Below are positions 3,666-51,079 of a stretch of DNA of 62,139 nucleotides, one piece after another. The position numbers were made by a program, and so were the translations under genes. Source of the stretch: an uncultured Clostridia bacterium (lineage in GTDB: Bacteria > Bacillota > Clostridia > TANB77 > CAG-508); the NCBI GenBank assembly GCA_934155625.1, contig CAKPHD010000003.1, forward strand, positions 1-62,139. Direction: 5' to 3'. Each line of letters opens with the position of its first letter. Within the stretch, counting starts at the first letter, position 1. Under the pieces are notes generated by a model. It ran no database searches. It was not told where the DNA came from and was given only the letters and a program-made list of their open reading frames with translations.

Positions 3666-4019
3666 GGGGATGTAATGGTTTCGACATTGCATTGGAAACA
3701 CAGATAGCGAGTAGTGGATTCTCGTTTGCCACTTTAAAAAACGAGAAAACTAAATATAAACGCTGATAATACAGAATTAGCATTTGCTGCCTAATTGCAG
3801 CATCGCCTATTAAAATATCCCCACATATTTTAATTTGGTGTCATTTTAGTGGGAAACAAAGCTGTTTTTTCTGCAAAAACAGTGGGTAACTTCGCAGATA
3901 TATCTATCAATCGTTTGTTTATTAATGCTTGTTAGATGAATTTTAATAATAAACTGCACTCGGAGAAGTTTGTGTGGATGGTGTTATGGACAGGGGTTCG
4001 ACTCCCCTCATCTCCACCA
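3666..4019 (+). ncRNA. ssrA: tmRNA (SsrA)
   Basis: 5' GGGGATGTAATGGTTTCGAC pairs with the 3' tRNA-like end GGACAGGGGTTCGACTCCCCTCATCTCCACCA. Internal tag frame GCT GAT AAT ACA GAA TTA GCA TTT GCT GCC TAA (3762-3794) encodes ...ADNTELAFAA, a typical hydrophobic-Ala-Ala degron. Confidence 0.95.
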
Positions 4020-15676: not shown

Positions 15677-15762
15677 TGGTGGACAGGGAAGGATTCGAAC
15701 CTTCGTACTCGTATGAGAACAGATTTACAGTCTGCCGCCTTTAGCCACTCGGCCACCTGTCC
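15677..15762 (-). tRNA. tRNA-Tyr (anticodon GTA), CCA encoded
   Basis: Reverse complement GGACAGGTGGCCGAGTGGCTAAAGGCGGCAGACTGTAAATCTGTTCTCATACGAGTACGAAGGTTCGAATCCTTCCCTGTCCACCA. Long variable arm, anticodon loop CTGTAAA. Confidence 0.92.
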
Positions 15763-15792
15763 AAATTTTTTATTACTTATGTAATAAAAAAA

Positions 15793-15869
15793 TGGTGCTC
15801 CCACTAGGACTTGAACCTAGGACCTACCGGTTATGAGCCGGTTGCTCTAACCAACTGAGCTATAGGAGC
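15793..15869 (-). tRNA. tRNA with CAT anticodon (elongator Met or lysidine-modified Ile2; not initiator-like), CCA encoded
   Basis: Reverse complement GCTCCTATAGCTCAGTTGGTTAGAGCAACCGGCTCATAACCGGTAGGTCCTAGGTTCAAGTCCTAGTGGGAGCACCA. Anticodon loop CTCATAA. No triple G-C run in the anticodon stem and a paired 1:72 position, so not fMet. Confidence 0.88.
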
Positions 15870-28496: not shown

Positions 28497-29585
28497 TTAC
28501 ATAAATCGATTTGATATTCCTTCTTCTAGAACACTAGAAAAAACACTTTTTAGAATTATTAAAACAATTGGTCCAACAAGCATTCCCATCACCCCAATTA
28601 CTTTAAACCCTGTGTACATTGCAATCAATGTAAAAATTGGATGTATTCCTATTTTTCCACTTACTATTTTAGGTTCCAAAAACTGTCTTACAAGTGACAT
28701 TATTATCCATAGCACAATTATTGCCACTCCTAACTGTATATCACCATTTAATGCTTCAATTACAGCCCAAGGAGCCATAACAGAACCAGAACCAAGTATT
28801 GGCAATGCATCTACAAATCCTATTCCTAATGCTATTAATAGTGGATATTTTACATTCATTCCTACAAATTTAAATATATACAGTCCCACCAACGAAATTA
28901 CAAATGACACCAATATAAGTATTGCCTCTGCTTTTAAATATCCTCCCAACTTTATTGTTATTTCTCTAATATGCACTCCTATTTTTTGCACCCATTTTCT
29001 TGGCATATGATGTTCCATAAAGTCCAAAATATAAATCCTATCTGTACATACAAAATATACTGAAAGAATTGTTATTACCACATATATTGCAATTGATGGT
29101 ATTGACGTAATAACTGACATCAATTTTGTTAAAAATCCTGTTATCCAAGTTGATAGCTTAAGCAATACTTCTTTTGAAGCATCTTGCACCAGATTAGCTA
29201 CATTATTCGATATGCTTACTCTTGAAATACTTATTTTTCCTATCGCCTCTTGAATCTGTGTATATGCTCTATCTATATATAAATTCAAAGTTTGCAAAAG
29301 ATTTGTTGATTCCGAAATTAGCGAAACAATCCCCCAAGTTACACTCCCAATTATTACAGCAAAAACTATTACAAATATTATAATTGAACTCATTTTTCTT
29401 GATAACTTTGTTTTTTTCATCAAATACTTTATTCCTGGCTCTATCATCAATGAAATTACAAAAGCCACTAAAAATGGCATATAAAACACTGCCATTTTTA
29501 CCCCTATGTACACCCCAACTATTACTAGGACAATATTTAAAACTCTTCTAATAACTTTATAAATATAATTTAAATCTTCTGACAT
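28497..29585 (-). CDS. ytvI: AI-2E family transporter (sporulation integral membrane protein YtvI-like)
   Basis: 362 aa, about 8 TM helices. The N-terminal pattern and PILGSG..APWA motif are typical of the PerM/AI-2E family. Confidence 0.7.
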   Translation of the reverse strand: MSEDLNYIYKVIRRVLNIVLVIVGVYIGVKMAVFYMPFLVAFVISLMIEPGIKYLMKKTKLSRKMSSIIIFVIVFAVIIGSVTWGIVSLISESTNLLQTLNLYIDRAYTQIQEAIGKISISRVSISNNVANLVQDASKEVLLKLSTWITGFLTKLMSVITSIPSIAIYVVITILSVYFVCTDRIYILDFMEHHMPRKWVQKIGVHIREITIKLGGYLKAEAILILVSFVISLVGLYIFKFVGMNVKYPLLIALGIGFVDALPILGSGSVMAPWAVIEALNGDIQLGVAIIVLWIIMSLVRQFLEPKIVSGKIGIHPIFTLIAMYTGFKVIGVMGMLVGPIVLIILKSVFSSVLEEGISNRFM

Positions 29586-29618
29586 TTGCCCTCTTTTCTA
29601 TGGTAAGAAGTTATATGA

Positions 29619-29808
29619 TATAAAATATCTTAAATATAAACTTTAAATGTAGCTACGAATGTGACTGAAAATCATTTAGAAATTCTATGCAATTTTATGG
29701 AAAGAGTTCACGTTAGTGGAAGGGTGCCATAAAATAAATTAGAATTTCTTAATGATTGTAATGAGCCGAGTAGCCAAATGCAAAGTTTATATTTAAGGAT
29801 ACTTTATA
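29619..29808 (-). repeat. long-hairpin structured repeat element, copy 1 (unassigned ncRNA or MITE)
   Basis: About 85-90% identical in its central ~130 nt to 43724-43908. Outer arms TATAAAATAT-CTTAAATATAAACTTT... pair with ...AAAGTTTATATTTAAGGATACTTTATA. Inner helices are 29670-29687/29740-29757 and TTTTATGG/CCATAAAA. The strand call is tentative, based on G-U wobbles and the direction of flanking genes. Confidence 0.8.
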
Positions 29809-29815
29809 CTAATAC

Positions 29816-30262
29816 TTACCCATTATTCTTAGTTTGTCCACCACAACCACAAATATCTTCAACAGTATTGCAGAAATGATCCTCTCCAGTCTCTTCATTA
29901 TAATGAGCCAAATCTCCTAAAGTAAGAATACCAATAACCTTATCATTATCAACAACTGGAATTCTCCTTATTTGATTTTGAGCCATCTTATTTTCAGCTG
30001 TATGAACATCATCATTTCCATTACAAGTACAAACATTACAAGTCATTATTTCACTTGCAGGTGTATTTTTTGCATCTTTATCACAAGCAACTGTACGCAA
30101 TATAATGTCTCTATCTGTAATTAATCCTAAAAGACAATTGTTATTATCACATACAGGCACACAACCAATATGATTTTGTTCCATCAATTTTGCAACATCA
30201 TTGATTTTTGTTTCTGGCTTTACGCAACAAACTTCGCCACACATACAATCTTTAACCTTCAT
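29816..30262 (-). CDS. CBS domain pair protein, unusually Cys-rich
   Basis: 148 aa. Two CBS motifs (VPVCDNNNCLLGLITDRDIILR; IPVVDNDKVIGILTLGDLA). Clustered cysteines: CMCGEVCC, CNVCTC, CGCGG. Confidence 0.75.
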   Translation of the reverse strand: MKVKDCMCGEVCCVKPETKINDVAKLMEQNHIGCVPVCDNNNCLLGLITDRDIILRTVACDKDAKNTPASEIMTCNVCTCNGNDDVHTAENKMAQNQIRRIPVVDNDKVIGILTLGDLAHYNEETGEDHFCNTVEDICGCGGQTKNNG

Positions 30263-43617: not shown

Positions 43618-43723
43618 TCTTTCATCCTCCTTTACTAGTTCGAATTATAATAGCCATCTTGCGTCGTTATAATTTATTAAAAACTATTTTAATTCAAACA
43701 GTTAGTTTATTCTTAATTTTAAT

Positions 43724-43908
43724 TGAATGCCTTAAAATATAATCTTTAAATGTAATGACGAATGTGATTGAAGAAACTTTAGAAATTCTATGCAATTTTA
43801 TGGAAAGAGTTCGCGATAGTGGAAGGGTGCCATAAAATAAATTAGAAGTTCTTAAGTTTCGTAATGAGCCGAGGAATGTAATGCAAAGATTATATTTCAA
43901 GGCATTCT
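43724..43908 (-). repeat. long-hairpin structured repeat element, copy 2 (between truB and metG)
   Basis: Outer arms GAATGCCTTAAAATATAATCTTT.. / ..AAAGATTATATTTCAAGGCATTC. Inner helices are 43783-43800/43843-43860 and TTTTATGG/CCATAAAA. The conserved internal-loop strings ACGAATGTGA and GTAATGAGCCGAG are shared with copy 1. Confidence 0.8.
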
Positions 43909-43914
43909 TTTAAT

Positions 43915-44763
43915 TTATATTATTATATCTCTTTTAAGCAAATTATTTTTAACAGTCCCAATTCCAATAAAATGTTCATTACTGTAGATTCTATAAACTC
44001 CATCCGGTAATGGCCAAGTCAATTGTACACCATTTAAAAATAATTGCAACTTTTTTTCATTTAAATTAATATTTTTATTTTGTCTAAAATACTCTTCAAT
44101 TGTAATGCAAGTTTGTTTTTGTTCTAATTCCTCTATCGCAATTGCATCTTCTATTTTGAACTCACCCACTTGAGTTCTTTTTAGTTCTTTCATATATCCT
44201 ACTGTACCAAGCTTTTCAGCTATATCTTCACATAATTTTCTTATATATGTTCCTTTAGAGCATGATACTCTAAATTCAATTTGCTTGTCGGCTTCATTAA
44301 TACTTATCAGTTCTAAACTGTAAATTTCTATTTTTCTAGGCTCAATTTCAACTTTCTCACCTTTTCTAGCATATTCATACAATTTTTTTCCATTTATTTT
44401 TATTGCAGAATACATTGGCGGAACTTGTTCTTGTTTTCCTTCTAATGCTTTAAAGATTTGTTCTACATATGTTGCTTCAAAACATTCTAAAAATACTGGT
44501 TTCGTCTCTATTACTTCACCTTCTACATCTGCAGTGTCTGTCTTTTCTCCTAGTTGCAAAACTGCTTCATATGTTTTGTCATGATTAATTATGTATTTTG
44601 AAATTTGAGTTCCTTTCCCAATAAGTAATGGTAACACACCTGTTGCATTAGGATCTAATGTACCTGTATGTCCAACTTTTTCATTCAATATTTTCTTTGC
44701 TTTTCTTACTATATCATGTGATGTACAATTTTTAGGCTTATTTATTATTATTATTCCATCCAT
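43915..44763 (-). CDS. truB: tRNA pseudouridine(55) synthase
   Basis: 282 aa. GHTGTLDPNATGVLPLLIG catalytic-Asp motif. Confidence 0.93.
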   Translation of the reverse strand: MDGIIIINKPKNCTSHDIVRKAKKILNEKVGHTGTLDPNATGVLPLLIGKGTQISKYIINHDKTYEAVLQLGEKTDTADVEGEVIETKPVFLECFEATYVEQIFKALEGKQEQVPPMYSAIKINGKKLYEYARKGEKVEIEPRKIEIYSLELISINEADKQIEFRVSCSKGTYIRKLCEDIAEKLGTVGYMKELKRTQVGEFKIEDAIAIEELEQKQTCITIEEYFRQNKNINLNEKKLQLFLNGVQLTWPLPDGVYRIYSNEHFIGIGTVKNNLLKRDIII

Positions 44764-49347: not shown

Positions 49348-50481
49348 TTATTCTTCAACTTTTTCTTCTGGTTCTTCGTTGTTCTCTGTCTCTTCTATTT
49401 TTTCTGATTCTTCTGTTTTTTTAGCTAGCATTTCTCTAAATTGTGTTTCTGATTTTATATCTATTTTCCATCCTGTTAATTTTGCTGCTAATCTTGCATT
49501 TTGACCAGCCTTTCCTATTGCTAGTGATAGTTGATCATCTGGAACTATTACTTGTGCAAATTTTTCTTCTTCTTTTATATCTACTGCCATTATTTGTGCA
49601 GGTAATAATGCTGATGATATGAATATGCTTGGATCTGCATTCCATTCAATTACATCTATTTTTTCTCCATGTAATTCATTTATTACATTTTGAATACGTA
49701 TTCCTTTTTGACCTACACATGAACCTACTGGGTCTATGTTTTCGTCTGGTGAATATACAGCAACCTTACTTCTTAATCCTGGATCTCTTGATACGCTTTT
49801 TATTTCGATTAGTCCTTCATATATTTCTGGTATTTCGAATTCTAATAATTTTCTTACAAAGTCTGGATGTGTTCTTGATATAATTGCTTGTGGTATTCCT
49901 TTTTCTCCTCTTTCTACATCTACTACATATCCTTTTATTTTGTCATTTACATGATATTTCTCTGTTGGAATTTGGTCTTTTGCTAACATTATTCCTTCTA
50001 GTTTTCCTAAATCCATTACTACTATGTGTTTATCTGCTTTTTGAATTAGTCCAGAAACTATTTCTCCTTTTCTTTCGTTATATTCATTAAATACCATGTT
50101 TCTTTCTGTTTCTCTCAATTTTTGAATTATTACTTGTTTTGCTGTTTGTGCTGCAATTCTTCCAAAGTCTCTTGGTACTATTTCTACTGCCACATTATCT
50201 CCTAAGTTTAGTTGATTGTTTATTTTTCTTGCTTCTTCTAAACTAATTTCTAATGCATCATCATTTGCCCTTTCCATGACTTCTTTTATTGAGTATATAT
50301 GAGTTTCTCCTGTTTTTTCATCTATTTTTACGTCTACATTTTCTAATGCATCAAAGTTTCTTTTATATGCTGTTATTAATGCTGTTCTTATTGATTCTAA
50401 TAGTTCTTCTTTTTTTATTCCTTTTTCTTTTTCTAATTCTTCTAAAGCTAATATTAATTCTTTATTATCTATTGCTTTCAT
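49348..50481 (-). CDS. nusA: transcription termination/antitermination factor NusA
   Basis: 377 aa. N-terminal domain, S1, two KH domains (GSCVGQKGIRIQ; AIGKAGQNARLA) and an acidic tail. Confidence 0.95.
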   Translation of the reverse strand: MKAIDNKELILALEELEKEKGIKKEELLESIRTALITAYKRNFDALENVDVKIDEKTGETHIYSIKEVMERANDDALEISLEEARKINNQLNLGDNVAVEIVPRDFGRIAAQTAKQVIIQKLRETERNMVFNEYNERKGEIVSGLIQKADKHIVVMDLGKLEGIMLAKDQIPTEKYHVNDKIKGYVVDVERGEKGIPQAIISRTHPDFVRKLLEFEIPEIYEGLIEIKSVSRDPGLRSKVAVYSPDENIDPVGSCVGQKGIRIQNVINELHGEKIDVIEWNADPSIFISSALLPAQIMAVDIKEEEKFAQVIVPDDQLSLAIGKAGQNARLAAKLTGWKIDIKSETQFREMLAKKTEESEKIEETENNEEPEEKVEE

Positions 50482-50516
50482 TTTTTATACTCCCTTTCTA
50501 TTACAAAAATTTAATT

Positions 50517-50963
50517 TTACCAATCGAACACAGTTTTTAATTGAGCTATGTTTTTTCTATCAAACTTGAATTTATCAATTGTAATTGTATCATTATCAAA
50601 TGCCTTTAGCTCACCAATATAATTCTTATTTCCGTTTTCATCTTTCTTGTATAGTTTTGCGTCTACTTGTTTTCCTATATTTTGTGCTAAATGGCTGTCT
50701 TTTCTTAATATTCTTTCAACTCCTGGTGATGATACTTCTAAGAAATATTGTTCTTTTATGTAGTCTGCTTGATCTAATAACTCATTTATTTCATTACTTA
50801 CTTTTTCACAGTCGTTTAAATCTATTCCTTTTGGACTGTCTATGAATATCCTTAAATAATAGTTCTGTCCTTCTTTTGCATATTCTACATCATATAGGCT
50901 GTATCCTATATTTTCTATTTTGTCTTTTAGTAGTTCTTCTACTCTTTCTTCTATTTTTGCCAT
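50517..50963 (-). CDS. rimP: ribosome maturation factor RimP
   Basis: About 148 aa from the ATG at 50963 (AGAGGAGG RBS). YLRIFID...GIDLNDCEKVS....LEVSSPGVERIL motif. The longer track ORF starts upstream of the predicted promoter. Confidence 0.88.
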   Translation of the reverse strand: MAKIEERVEELLKDKIENIGYSLYDVEYAKEGQNYYLRIFIDSPKGIDLNDCEKVSNEINELLDQADYIKEQYFLEVSSPGVERILRKDSHLAQNIGKQVDAKLYKKDENGNKNYIGELKAFDNDTITIDKFKFDRKNIAQLKTVFDW

Positions 50964-51050
50964 ATAGCCTCCTCTTTCTTTTATTATCCTCTTCACGATT
51001 GAAGAGTAGGATTTGTTCCTACTCTTCTGCGTTTTTTTATGTTCTTTTAT

Positions 51051-51079
51051 ATTATACCCAATTTTTGCCATAAAATCAA
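51051..51079 (-). promoter_or_regulatory. sigma-A promoter of the rimP-nusA-infB operon
   Basis: Minus strand TTGATT (51079-51074), 17-nt spacer, TATAAT (51056-51051). The ~80-nt leader carries two mutually exclusive hairpins. Confidence 0.6.

Follow-up and report, generated by a model that had tools for sequence, protein, structure and literature searches.

Two long hairpins in an uncultured gut Clostridia genome as probable aged copies of a foldback-type MITE

The 62,139-nucleotide stretch of an uncultured Clostridia genome analysed here (contig CAKPHD010000003.1, positions 1 to 62,139; hereafter "the window") carries two copies of a long imperfect hairpin whose stems differ in sequence between the copies and are nevertheless paired in both. 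What is this element, and what keeps its arms complementary? A sequence-only reading of the window took it to be an unassigned structured RNA, favoured the minus strand as the one transcribed, and left two alternatives open, a 6S-like long hairpin and a MITE. The evidence favours a mobile repeat with terminal inverted repeats (TIRs), 8-bp target-site duplications (TSDs), presence/absence polymorphism and no fixed orientation over a minus-strand RNA gene; with a probability of about 0.85, each hairpin is an old copy, no longer mobile, of a non-autonomous DNA transposon, namely a foldback-type MITE of ~240–256 bp. As far as could be found, this family has not been described before, and the window copies are aged members of it with eroded ends.

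Two copies of one hairpin and their surroundings

Coordinates and alignment agree that the two regions (Table 1) are copies of one element, the column identity between them being 84% over ~250 columns. The 26-nt apical sequence AAAGAGTTCNCGNTAGTGGAAGGGTG, described earlier as conserved, occurs exactly twice in the window, once in each copy, the chance expectation obtained from shuffles being 0 matches even when three mismatches are tolerated. A search of the 62-kb window with the family profile returned copies 1 and 2 and no third copy.

Both copies fold on either strand into one long hairpin with energies from −50.6 to −61.5 kcal/mol and with z-scores, relative to dinucleotide shuffles, from −7.6 to −11.6, so that the fold originally proposed for both is borne out. 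The same is true of its details: in the 7-bp block that reads AATCATT/AATGATT in copy 1 and GAAACTT/AAGTTTC in copy 2, four positions are changed and all four changes are compensated, and the 8-bp helix TTTTATGG/CCATAAAA is present. When RNAalifold was applied to 104 distinct copies of the family, the consensus turned out to be the fold that had been drawn from the window alone; its outer part is made up of the outer stem, of a short helix that takes either a tandem G-A or a Watson-Crick form and of a conserved internal loop of ~12 × 12 nt, its inner part of a long helix followed by the 8-bp helix and by the apex, where a 5-bp mini-helix lies between purine-rich loops. The loop blocks of this core are CGAATGTG and GTAATRAGCCGAG.

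As had been noted from the sequence, both copies lie between minus-strand genes, identified by their ORFs and by Pfam: copy 1 has a CBS-domain gene on one side and a gene for an AI-2E-family transporter on the other, while truB and metG flank copy 2, which is found where a rimP-nusA-infB-rbfA-nrnA-truB string ends; this string is entirely on the minus strand. The right end of copy 1 contains the stop codon of the CBS-domain gene (29816–29818) and its left end is ~17 nt from the start codon of the transporter gene (29583–29585), whereas the right arm of copy 2 is shortened against the truB stop codon (43915–43917) and has lost the right TIR. The sole ORF extending over a copy is a 68-aa TTG ORF in copy 2, without counterpart in copy 1. 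Alignment to intact family members revealed no recognisable canonical TIR or TSD at either window copy, only eroded relics of the TIRs; the two copies are assigned to the family because they have the core and the arms in common with it.

Two further interpretations of these surroundings were considered and abandoned. The relic of the right TIR of copy 1 had been suspected to be the source of the last codons of the CBS-domain gene, an idea that was withdrawn since the same codons, AAGAATAAT, are native in the orthologue of another genome. Copy 2, on the other hand, could have been a T-box or another type of metG leader; this was rejected in view of the lack of an Rfam match, the absence of the segment from a close relative and the presence of the element elsewhere beside unrelated genes and in either orientation.

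A comparison of the whole window with Rfam at gathering thresholds yielded no match over the element, and with copy 1 as query and E-values up to 10 the only match was the plant microRNA precursor MIR6217 (18.9 bits versus a gathering threshold of 110), attributable to chance. The 6S, T-box, riboswitch, raiA and similar models are thus all without match; the earlier reading, too, could not assign the element to T-box, riboswitch, SRP or RNase P. The only Rfam matches within the window are a tmRNA at 3666–4019 on the plus strand (176.5 bits) and two tRNA genes at 15680–15869 on the minus strand.

Table 1. Positions in the window of the two hairpin copies, of their conserved blocks and of the sites that differ in a close relative
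Feature	Position	Strand	Remarks
Copy 1, long hairpin	29619–29808		Core and inner part of the outer stem; nhmmer 29621–29807, E = 1.4e-47
Copy 1, full palindrome GGTAAG...CTTACC	29602–29820		Probable extent of the eroded MITE, boundaries uncertain by ~15 nt; from alignment to intact family members, ORFs and Pfam
Copy 1, 5' block of asymmetric internal loop, CGAATGTG	29656–29663	+	Invariant or nearly so in 104 copies
Copy 1, conserved apex	29701–29726	+	5-bp mini-helix UUCAC/GUGGA between purine-rich loops; compensatory variants in other genomes
Copy 1, 3' block of internal loop, GTAATGAGCCGAG	29758–29770	+	Sequence match; family alignment
Copy 2 with unique 91-nt piece (43633–43723)	43633–43913		281-bp segment missing from the relative L004
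Copy 2, long hairpin	43724–43908		nhmmer 43720–43914, E = 1.2e-57
Copy 2, 5' block of internal loop, CGAATGTG	43759–43766	+	Sequence match
Copy 2, conserved apex	43804–43829	+	Mini-helix UUCGC/GUGGA with two G-U pairs on the plus strand
Copy 2, 3' block of internal loop, GTAATGAGCCGAG	43861–43873	+	Sequence match
Unoccupied site, AAAATTTAATTTT	50506–50518		Between rimP (50517–51071) and nusA (49348–50481)

A dispersed family: ends, target duplications and turnover

A search for further copies had been suggested when the element was first noticed. Scanning for exact matches to the apex pattern gave 26 loci, and scanning with the two internal-loop blocks gave ~105 full copies; the core was thereby found at more than 100 intergenic sites, and all true matches belong to MAGs of uncultured small-genome Clostridia from the human gut (Hadza, Nepal and others) and from the rabbit gut. 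The number of full copies ranges from 2 to ~18 per genome. Copies within one genome are nearly identical and display genome-specific variants, from which it follows that the family multiplied in bursts, and in several genomes at least two subfamilies occur together, having the apices GGAAAGAG...AGGGTGCC and GGTAAGAG...AAGGACCC. The apex pattern has 0 matches in viral contigs, and a BLAST comparison of the full element with plasmids gave only chance matches of AT-rich sequence. The genome designated CAKOYQ (loci L027, L051, L064 and L092) also contains a GC-rich repeat, GGGCAATWTGGGGTCGGTTCCNTTTTTRCCC, of which one or two units flank both arms at ~60–130 nt from the core and which seems to form a second, nested family of repeats.

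In CANRBL, the genome with most copies (~18 full ones in this single MAG), the repeat unit is sharply bounded, with GTTACARGTTAATGGTTTTA at one limit and TAAAACCATTAACYTGTAAC at the other, outside which the sequences are unrelated; the same ends, GTTACNNGWTAATGG, can be recognised in five further genomes. The bounded, younger copies are non-coding units of 239–256 bp and, in the 22 copies, from six genomes, in which both ends could be recognised, these ends carry TIRs of 15–20 bp (GTTACNNGWTAATGG..., GTTACNNGWTAATGGTTT...). Immediately outside these ends, the 8-nt flanks are identical at all eight positions in 10 of the 22 copies and at seven in another 4, while in control pairs made of left and right flanks of different copies 8/8 identity was found in 0 and 7/8 identity in 45 of 5000 cases: 8-bp target-site duplications flank the younger copies. 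These became recognisable only once the TIRs had fixed the ends of the element, a generic search for flanking direct repeats being uninformative, with repeats of 10–13 bp as frequent in mismatched controls. A transposon end was among the findings that the sequence-only reading had listed as speaking against an RNA, and the ends are there.

The TIR taken alone is present at no fewer than 40 sites in CANRBL, including TIR-TIR minis of 54–90 bp and deletion forms devoid of the core. Mini-derivatives consisting of little beyond the two TIRs and core-loss forms were identified at L146:2606-2659, L157:947-1000, L133, L149, L125, L144 and L132; in the core-loss forms exactly the core is gone, between AATGNAATGA repeats that are found on both arms. 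These derivatives imply that internal deletion is frequent. Elements of 70–130 bp with the same TIR and unrelated interiors were also seen in the JAUNSP and CACXCH/RUG11129 genomes (L136, L138, L152, L129 and L142), and the same transposase probably moves several MITE families.

A cognate transposase or autonomous element was not found beside solo TIRs, among the ORFs common to the loci or in a metagenome scan. The ORFs beside solo TIRs are housekeeping genes and no transposase-like ORF is common to the loci; the metagenome scan produced mostly chance matches, one pair of ends ~2.2 kb apart enclosing recG and one recurrent match falling inside an ABC-transporter permease gene. Since IS copies are frequently lost from MAG assemblies, a cognate transposase may have escaped these searches. 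At L145:4050-5770 a 571-aa ORF, located ~0.9 kb from a mini-element, has an N-terminus that resembles by eye that of a large serine recombinase (YARLSRDEDRE) and is probably an unrelated integrase.

The turnover of the family can be followed between the window and a close relative. The segment 43000–51000 is ~96% identical at the DNA level to CAKOYU010000002.1:136001-144000 (locus L004, from a Hadza gut MAG), and the two differ within these 8 kb by the presence or absence of the element at two sites. The organism from which the window derives is a close relative of the uncultured Clostridia species of L004, and kin genomes are ~1.5 Mb in size (OV788638.1).

The first difference concerns copy 2, which together with a 91-nt piece is missing from L004, where the ribosome-binding site of metG comes only a few bases after truB. 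No repeat of the 91-nt piece occurs in the family loci compared. Situated between copy 2 and the ribosome-binding site of metG, it contains on the minus strand a perfect TATAAT ~27 nt upstream of this site; judging from this motif, the piece could supply metG with a promoter of its own downstream of the hairpin. The second difference is found between rimP and nusA, where L004 has a 214-bp family member flanked by two AAAATTTAATTTT 13-mers, one of them with a mismatch, and the window has the unoccupied 13-mer. The latter is a target site that is empty or else the scar of a deletion and, since chance repeats of 13 bases are common in this AT-rich DNA, deletion stimulated by the hairpin is here just as likely as insertion. 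Neither polymorphism is a textbook insertion, the copy 2 segment comprising the unique 91 nt and having no right end. In either event, copies are gained or lost within a short time.

Copies at other loci are old. A decayed relic occupies the orthologous CBS/AI-2E site of CANRBL, a variant copy adjoins a homologue of the AI-2E transporter in CAKPLT, and several species have a copy in the rny-ymdB spacer; in three rabbit-gut MAGs (L002:4330-4970, L008:1-620 and L015:1150-1790) the occupant of this spacer is a variant of ~400–470 bp with extra palindromic modules.

It is because of the TIRs, the 8-bp TSDs, the presence/absence differences, the occurrence in both orientations and the deletion derivatives that the hairpins are assigned to a MITE. 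This promotes what had been left as an open alternative to the preferred reading, with the copy number as an additional argument.

Pairing, strand and the conserved core

According to the mechanism that we propose, the elements would be moved in trans by a DDE-type transposase making cuts staggered by 8 bp, and the long hairpin would result from the element being palindromic from its ends to its centre. That pairing is kept while the sequence drifts would most likely mean that the foldback itself matters, for instance by juxtaposing the ends or as a single-strand structure, and repair or recombination between the arms would probably contribute to it. The two window copies are co-oriented, and read-through of the minus-strand operons would carry each of them as a very stable RNA hairpin which, directly following the stop codons of the CBS-domain gene and of truB, could be a signal for mRNA 3'-end formation, stability or attenuation.

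The covariation is extensive. In the 104 distinct copies, counts from which are not phylogenetically independent, 96.8% of cells are paired and 41 of the 56 pairs have changed on both sides, a level that was reached by none of 500 shuffles and from which slid registers also fell far short. Covariation across further copies, for which a check had been recommended, is therefore present; as evidence for an RNA gene, however, it is confounded, for the like can be produced by mobile DNA that is palindromic.

Orientation was the other property expected to be informative, the question having been raised whether the copies always follow the direction of the flanking operons. Among the copies with genes called on both sides, and with the plus strand defined by the apex, both neighbours are opposite to the plus strand in 43 cases and on the plus strand in 24, while 12 settings are convergent and 10 divergent; no copy lies inside an ORF, and where the neighbours are co-directional the element begins just past the upstream stop codon. 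The orientation is thus not fixed, a spread that is not expected of a cis-regulatory RNA or of an RNA gene with a fixed strand. Scans for promoter-like sites and terminators gave no signals above the expectation from shuffles or chance.

Nor do the wobble pairs favour a minus-strand RNA. The several A-C mismatches that were said to become G-U pairs on this strand had been overstated, given that the consensus helices contain one A-C mismatch per window copy. In the mini-helix of copy 2, the two plus-strand G-U pairs are replaced by two A-C mismatches on the minus strand, and throughout the family, counted over copies that share descent, 268 wobbles are on the plus strand as opposed to 63 on the minus strand, this bias being carried mostly by three near-fixed positions. 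In the inner helices and apex the preference for the plus strand is almost exclusive (237 G-U versus 9 A-C in the inner helices), and only the outer stem has a weak lean toward the minus strand (54 versus 31).

Two properties of the core are left unexplained by a plain MITE, namely the wobble pairs favouring one strand and the rate at which the core changes. In orthologous copies the core is 97.6% identical, identity being ~92% in the arms and ~92.7% in the mostly coding flanks; the asymmetric core is slower-evolving than the flanking coding DNA. This leads to the strongest of the rival explanations, one that is compatible with the MITE and adds to it a sequence-specific function of the core: the core of ~115–130 nt, made up of asymmetric internal loop, long helix and apex, would itself be a functional single-strand structure, spread by the MITE and maintained by the host or by the element. 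We regard it as improbable, though far less so than the other rivals. If functional, the core would most likely be a structured plus-strand RNA with protein-binding internal loops or, alternatively, a fold of single-stranded DNA.

A number of observations speak in its favour. The stems turn over with compensation and the loops stay constant, although the loop blocks doubled as search patterns and their conservation is therefore partly built in. The apical mini-helix, found as UUCAC/GUGGA, UUCGC/GCGGA, UUCAU/AUGGA, UUCGU/ACGGA and UUCAC/GUGAA, has undergone several independent double changes while its loop sequence is free to vary, and the distant member L040 keeps the loop blocks, every helix being different. 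To these may be added the strand preference of the inner helices, the slow evolution of the core and the tendency of copy-specific wobbles to follow the transcribed strand of the neighbours (odds ratio 3.3, p = 0.024 for all states; 2.6–3.2, p = 0.10–0.16 when only rare states are considered). On the other hand, the orientation relative to the genes is not fixed and the plus strand is antisense to the neighbours in most copies, promoter and terminator signals do not exceed chance, the plus-strand bias stems largely from three positions, gene conversion among copies could account for the conservation of the core, and the decayed relic at the CBS/AI-2E locus of CANRBL indicates that the core is not always maintained. 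Moreover, compensatory change in mobile hairpin repeats is not without precedent, having been described for REPINs (PMC3116915) and for bcr1 (PMC3184786).

A tentative extension of the MITE reading, which we likewise hold to be unlikely, would see in the MITE the vehicle of a plus-favouring single-strand structure of ~120 nt that is under purifying selection after insertion. In the modelled fold, such a module would consist of the large asymmetric internal loop, the tandem-GA helix and the apical mini-helix between purine-rich loops. Were this true, a new structured RNA or ssDNA module would have been spread by transposition through reduced genomes of gut Clostridia, serving either the element, by pairing of the ends or recruitment of the transposase, or a host that has domesticated it as a signal for RNA processing, stability or protein binding. 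Our best estimate is that the core serves the propagation or maintenance of the element itself and that in the window it amounts at most to a passive hairpin in the RNA where the CBS-gene and truB messages end.

Far less probable is that the element is an inverton, in which a site-specific recombinase would flip the asymmetric core between the arms and thereby regulate the neighbouring genes. Inversions do occur: at rny-ymdB, the inner 150 bp, enclosed between 15-bp inverted repeats, are flipped in L002 with respect to L008 (146/150 identity when reverse-complemented versus 109/153 in the same orientation) with the outer arms and the flanks remaining colinear, the larger unit is inverted and truncated in L015, and L016 differs from L024 by an exchange of the asymmetric spacers around an unflipped core. 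Thus, arm-to-arm recombination takes place and may help to keep the arms complementary. However, flips are seen solely between genomes of different species, for which ordinary recombination between long arms suffices, no recombinase is linked to the copies, and TIRs, 8-bp TSDs and presence/absence differences are features of a transposon and not of a switch.

Marginally less probable still is a hairpin repeat of REPIN-like or IS200/IS605 type, which a Y1 (HUH) transposase would mobilise in the form of single-stranded DNA; the long hairpin, the compensatory changes and the strand-biased fold are as in REPINs (PMC3116915), but such systems have neither TIRs nor target duplication, both of which are present here, and a Y1 transposase gene was not seen beside any copy. 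A free-standing small RNA gene, whether known or 6S-like, is hardly credible, inasmuch as the long hairpin with its large internal bubble, which is what recommends it, is outweighed by the chance nature of the sole Rfam match, the dozens of copies per genome, lying in either orientation, the TIRs and the TSDs, and the 6S-like alternative left open by the sequence-only reading falls with it.

Significance and relation to known systems

The foldback-type MITE that we favour has some general consequences. In the present case, 41 of 56 covarying pairs and a large folding z-score have their origin in a palindromic repeat that is mobile, not in an RNA gene, so that any screen of AT-rich gut MAGs for structured RNAs needs to include a check for repeats, TIRs and TSDs. 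The family also marks recent genome flux in the small and otherwise streamlined genomes of uncultured gut Clostridia, with landings inside essential operons, i.e., at rimP/nusA of the rimP-nusA-infB operon in the relative L004 and at truB/metG in the window. Copies placed right after stop codons should, on the basis of the predicted −50 to −60 kcal/mol of their hairpin, affect mRNA ends. Finally, if the conserved, strand-biased core is functional, it would exemplify how a MITE can spread a structured nucleic-acid module.

As to its relation to known systems, the element has in common with 6S and the other long-hairpin RNAs of Rfam the long hairpin with a large internal loop, yet it matches none of their models and is multicopy, mobile and without a fixed strand. 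REPINs resemble it in being mobile hairpin repeats, with frequent compensatory changes across a hairpin whose importance is believed to lie in ssDNA or mRNA (PMC3116915); unlike the present family, which has both TIRs and TSDs, REPINs are moved by the RAYT (Y1) transposase and have neither.

Among the repeats of Firmicutes, bcr1 of the Bacillus cereus group is a mobile intergenic repeat of ~155 bp with short direct repeats and a distribution that varies between strains, and compensatory base changes keep its structure at the RNA level (PMC3184786). The family described here is likewise a mobile intergenic Firmicute repeat with compensatory changes; bcr1, however, has direct repeats of 5 bp, a different sequence and a different fold, and is known to be transcribed.

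The prokaryotic MITEs are elements of less than 500 bp, AT-rich and intergenic, having TIRs and direct repeats that fade with age and giving rise to stable stem-loop transcripts (PMC10969869). Like Correia/CREE of Neisseria, ERIC of enterobacteria, RUP of S. pneumoniae and QMITE of Coxiella, the family found here is small, AT-rich, intergenic and multicopy (PMC10969869; PMC3184786); it also shares with them the TIRs, the short target duplications fading with age and the stable stem-loop that would form upon transcription. On the other hand, it has no sequence relation to Correia/CREE, ERIC, RUP or QMITE, and its target duplication is of 8 bp compared to the TA of Correia and ERIC. It differs from those MITEs also in that here the whole element is palindromic and the part best conserved is not the ends but the asymmetric centre.
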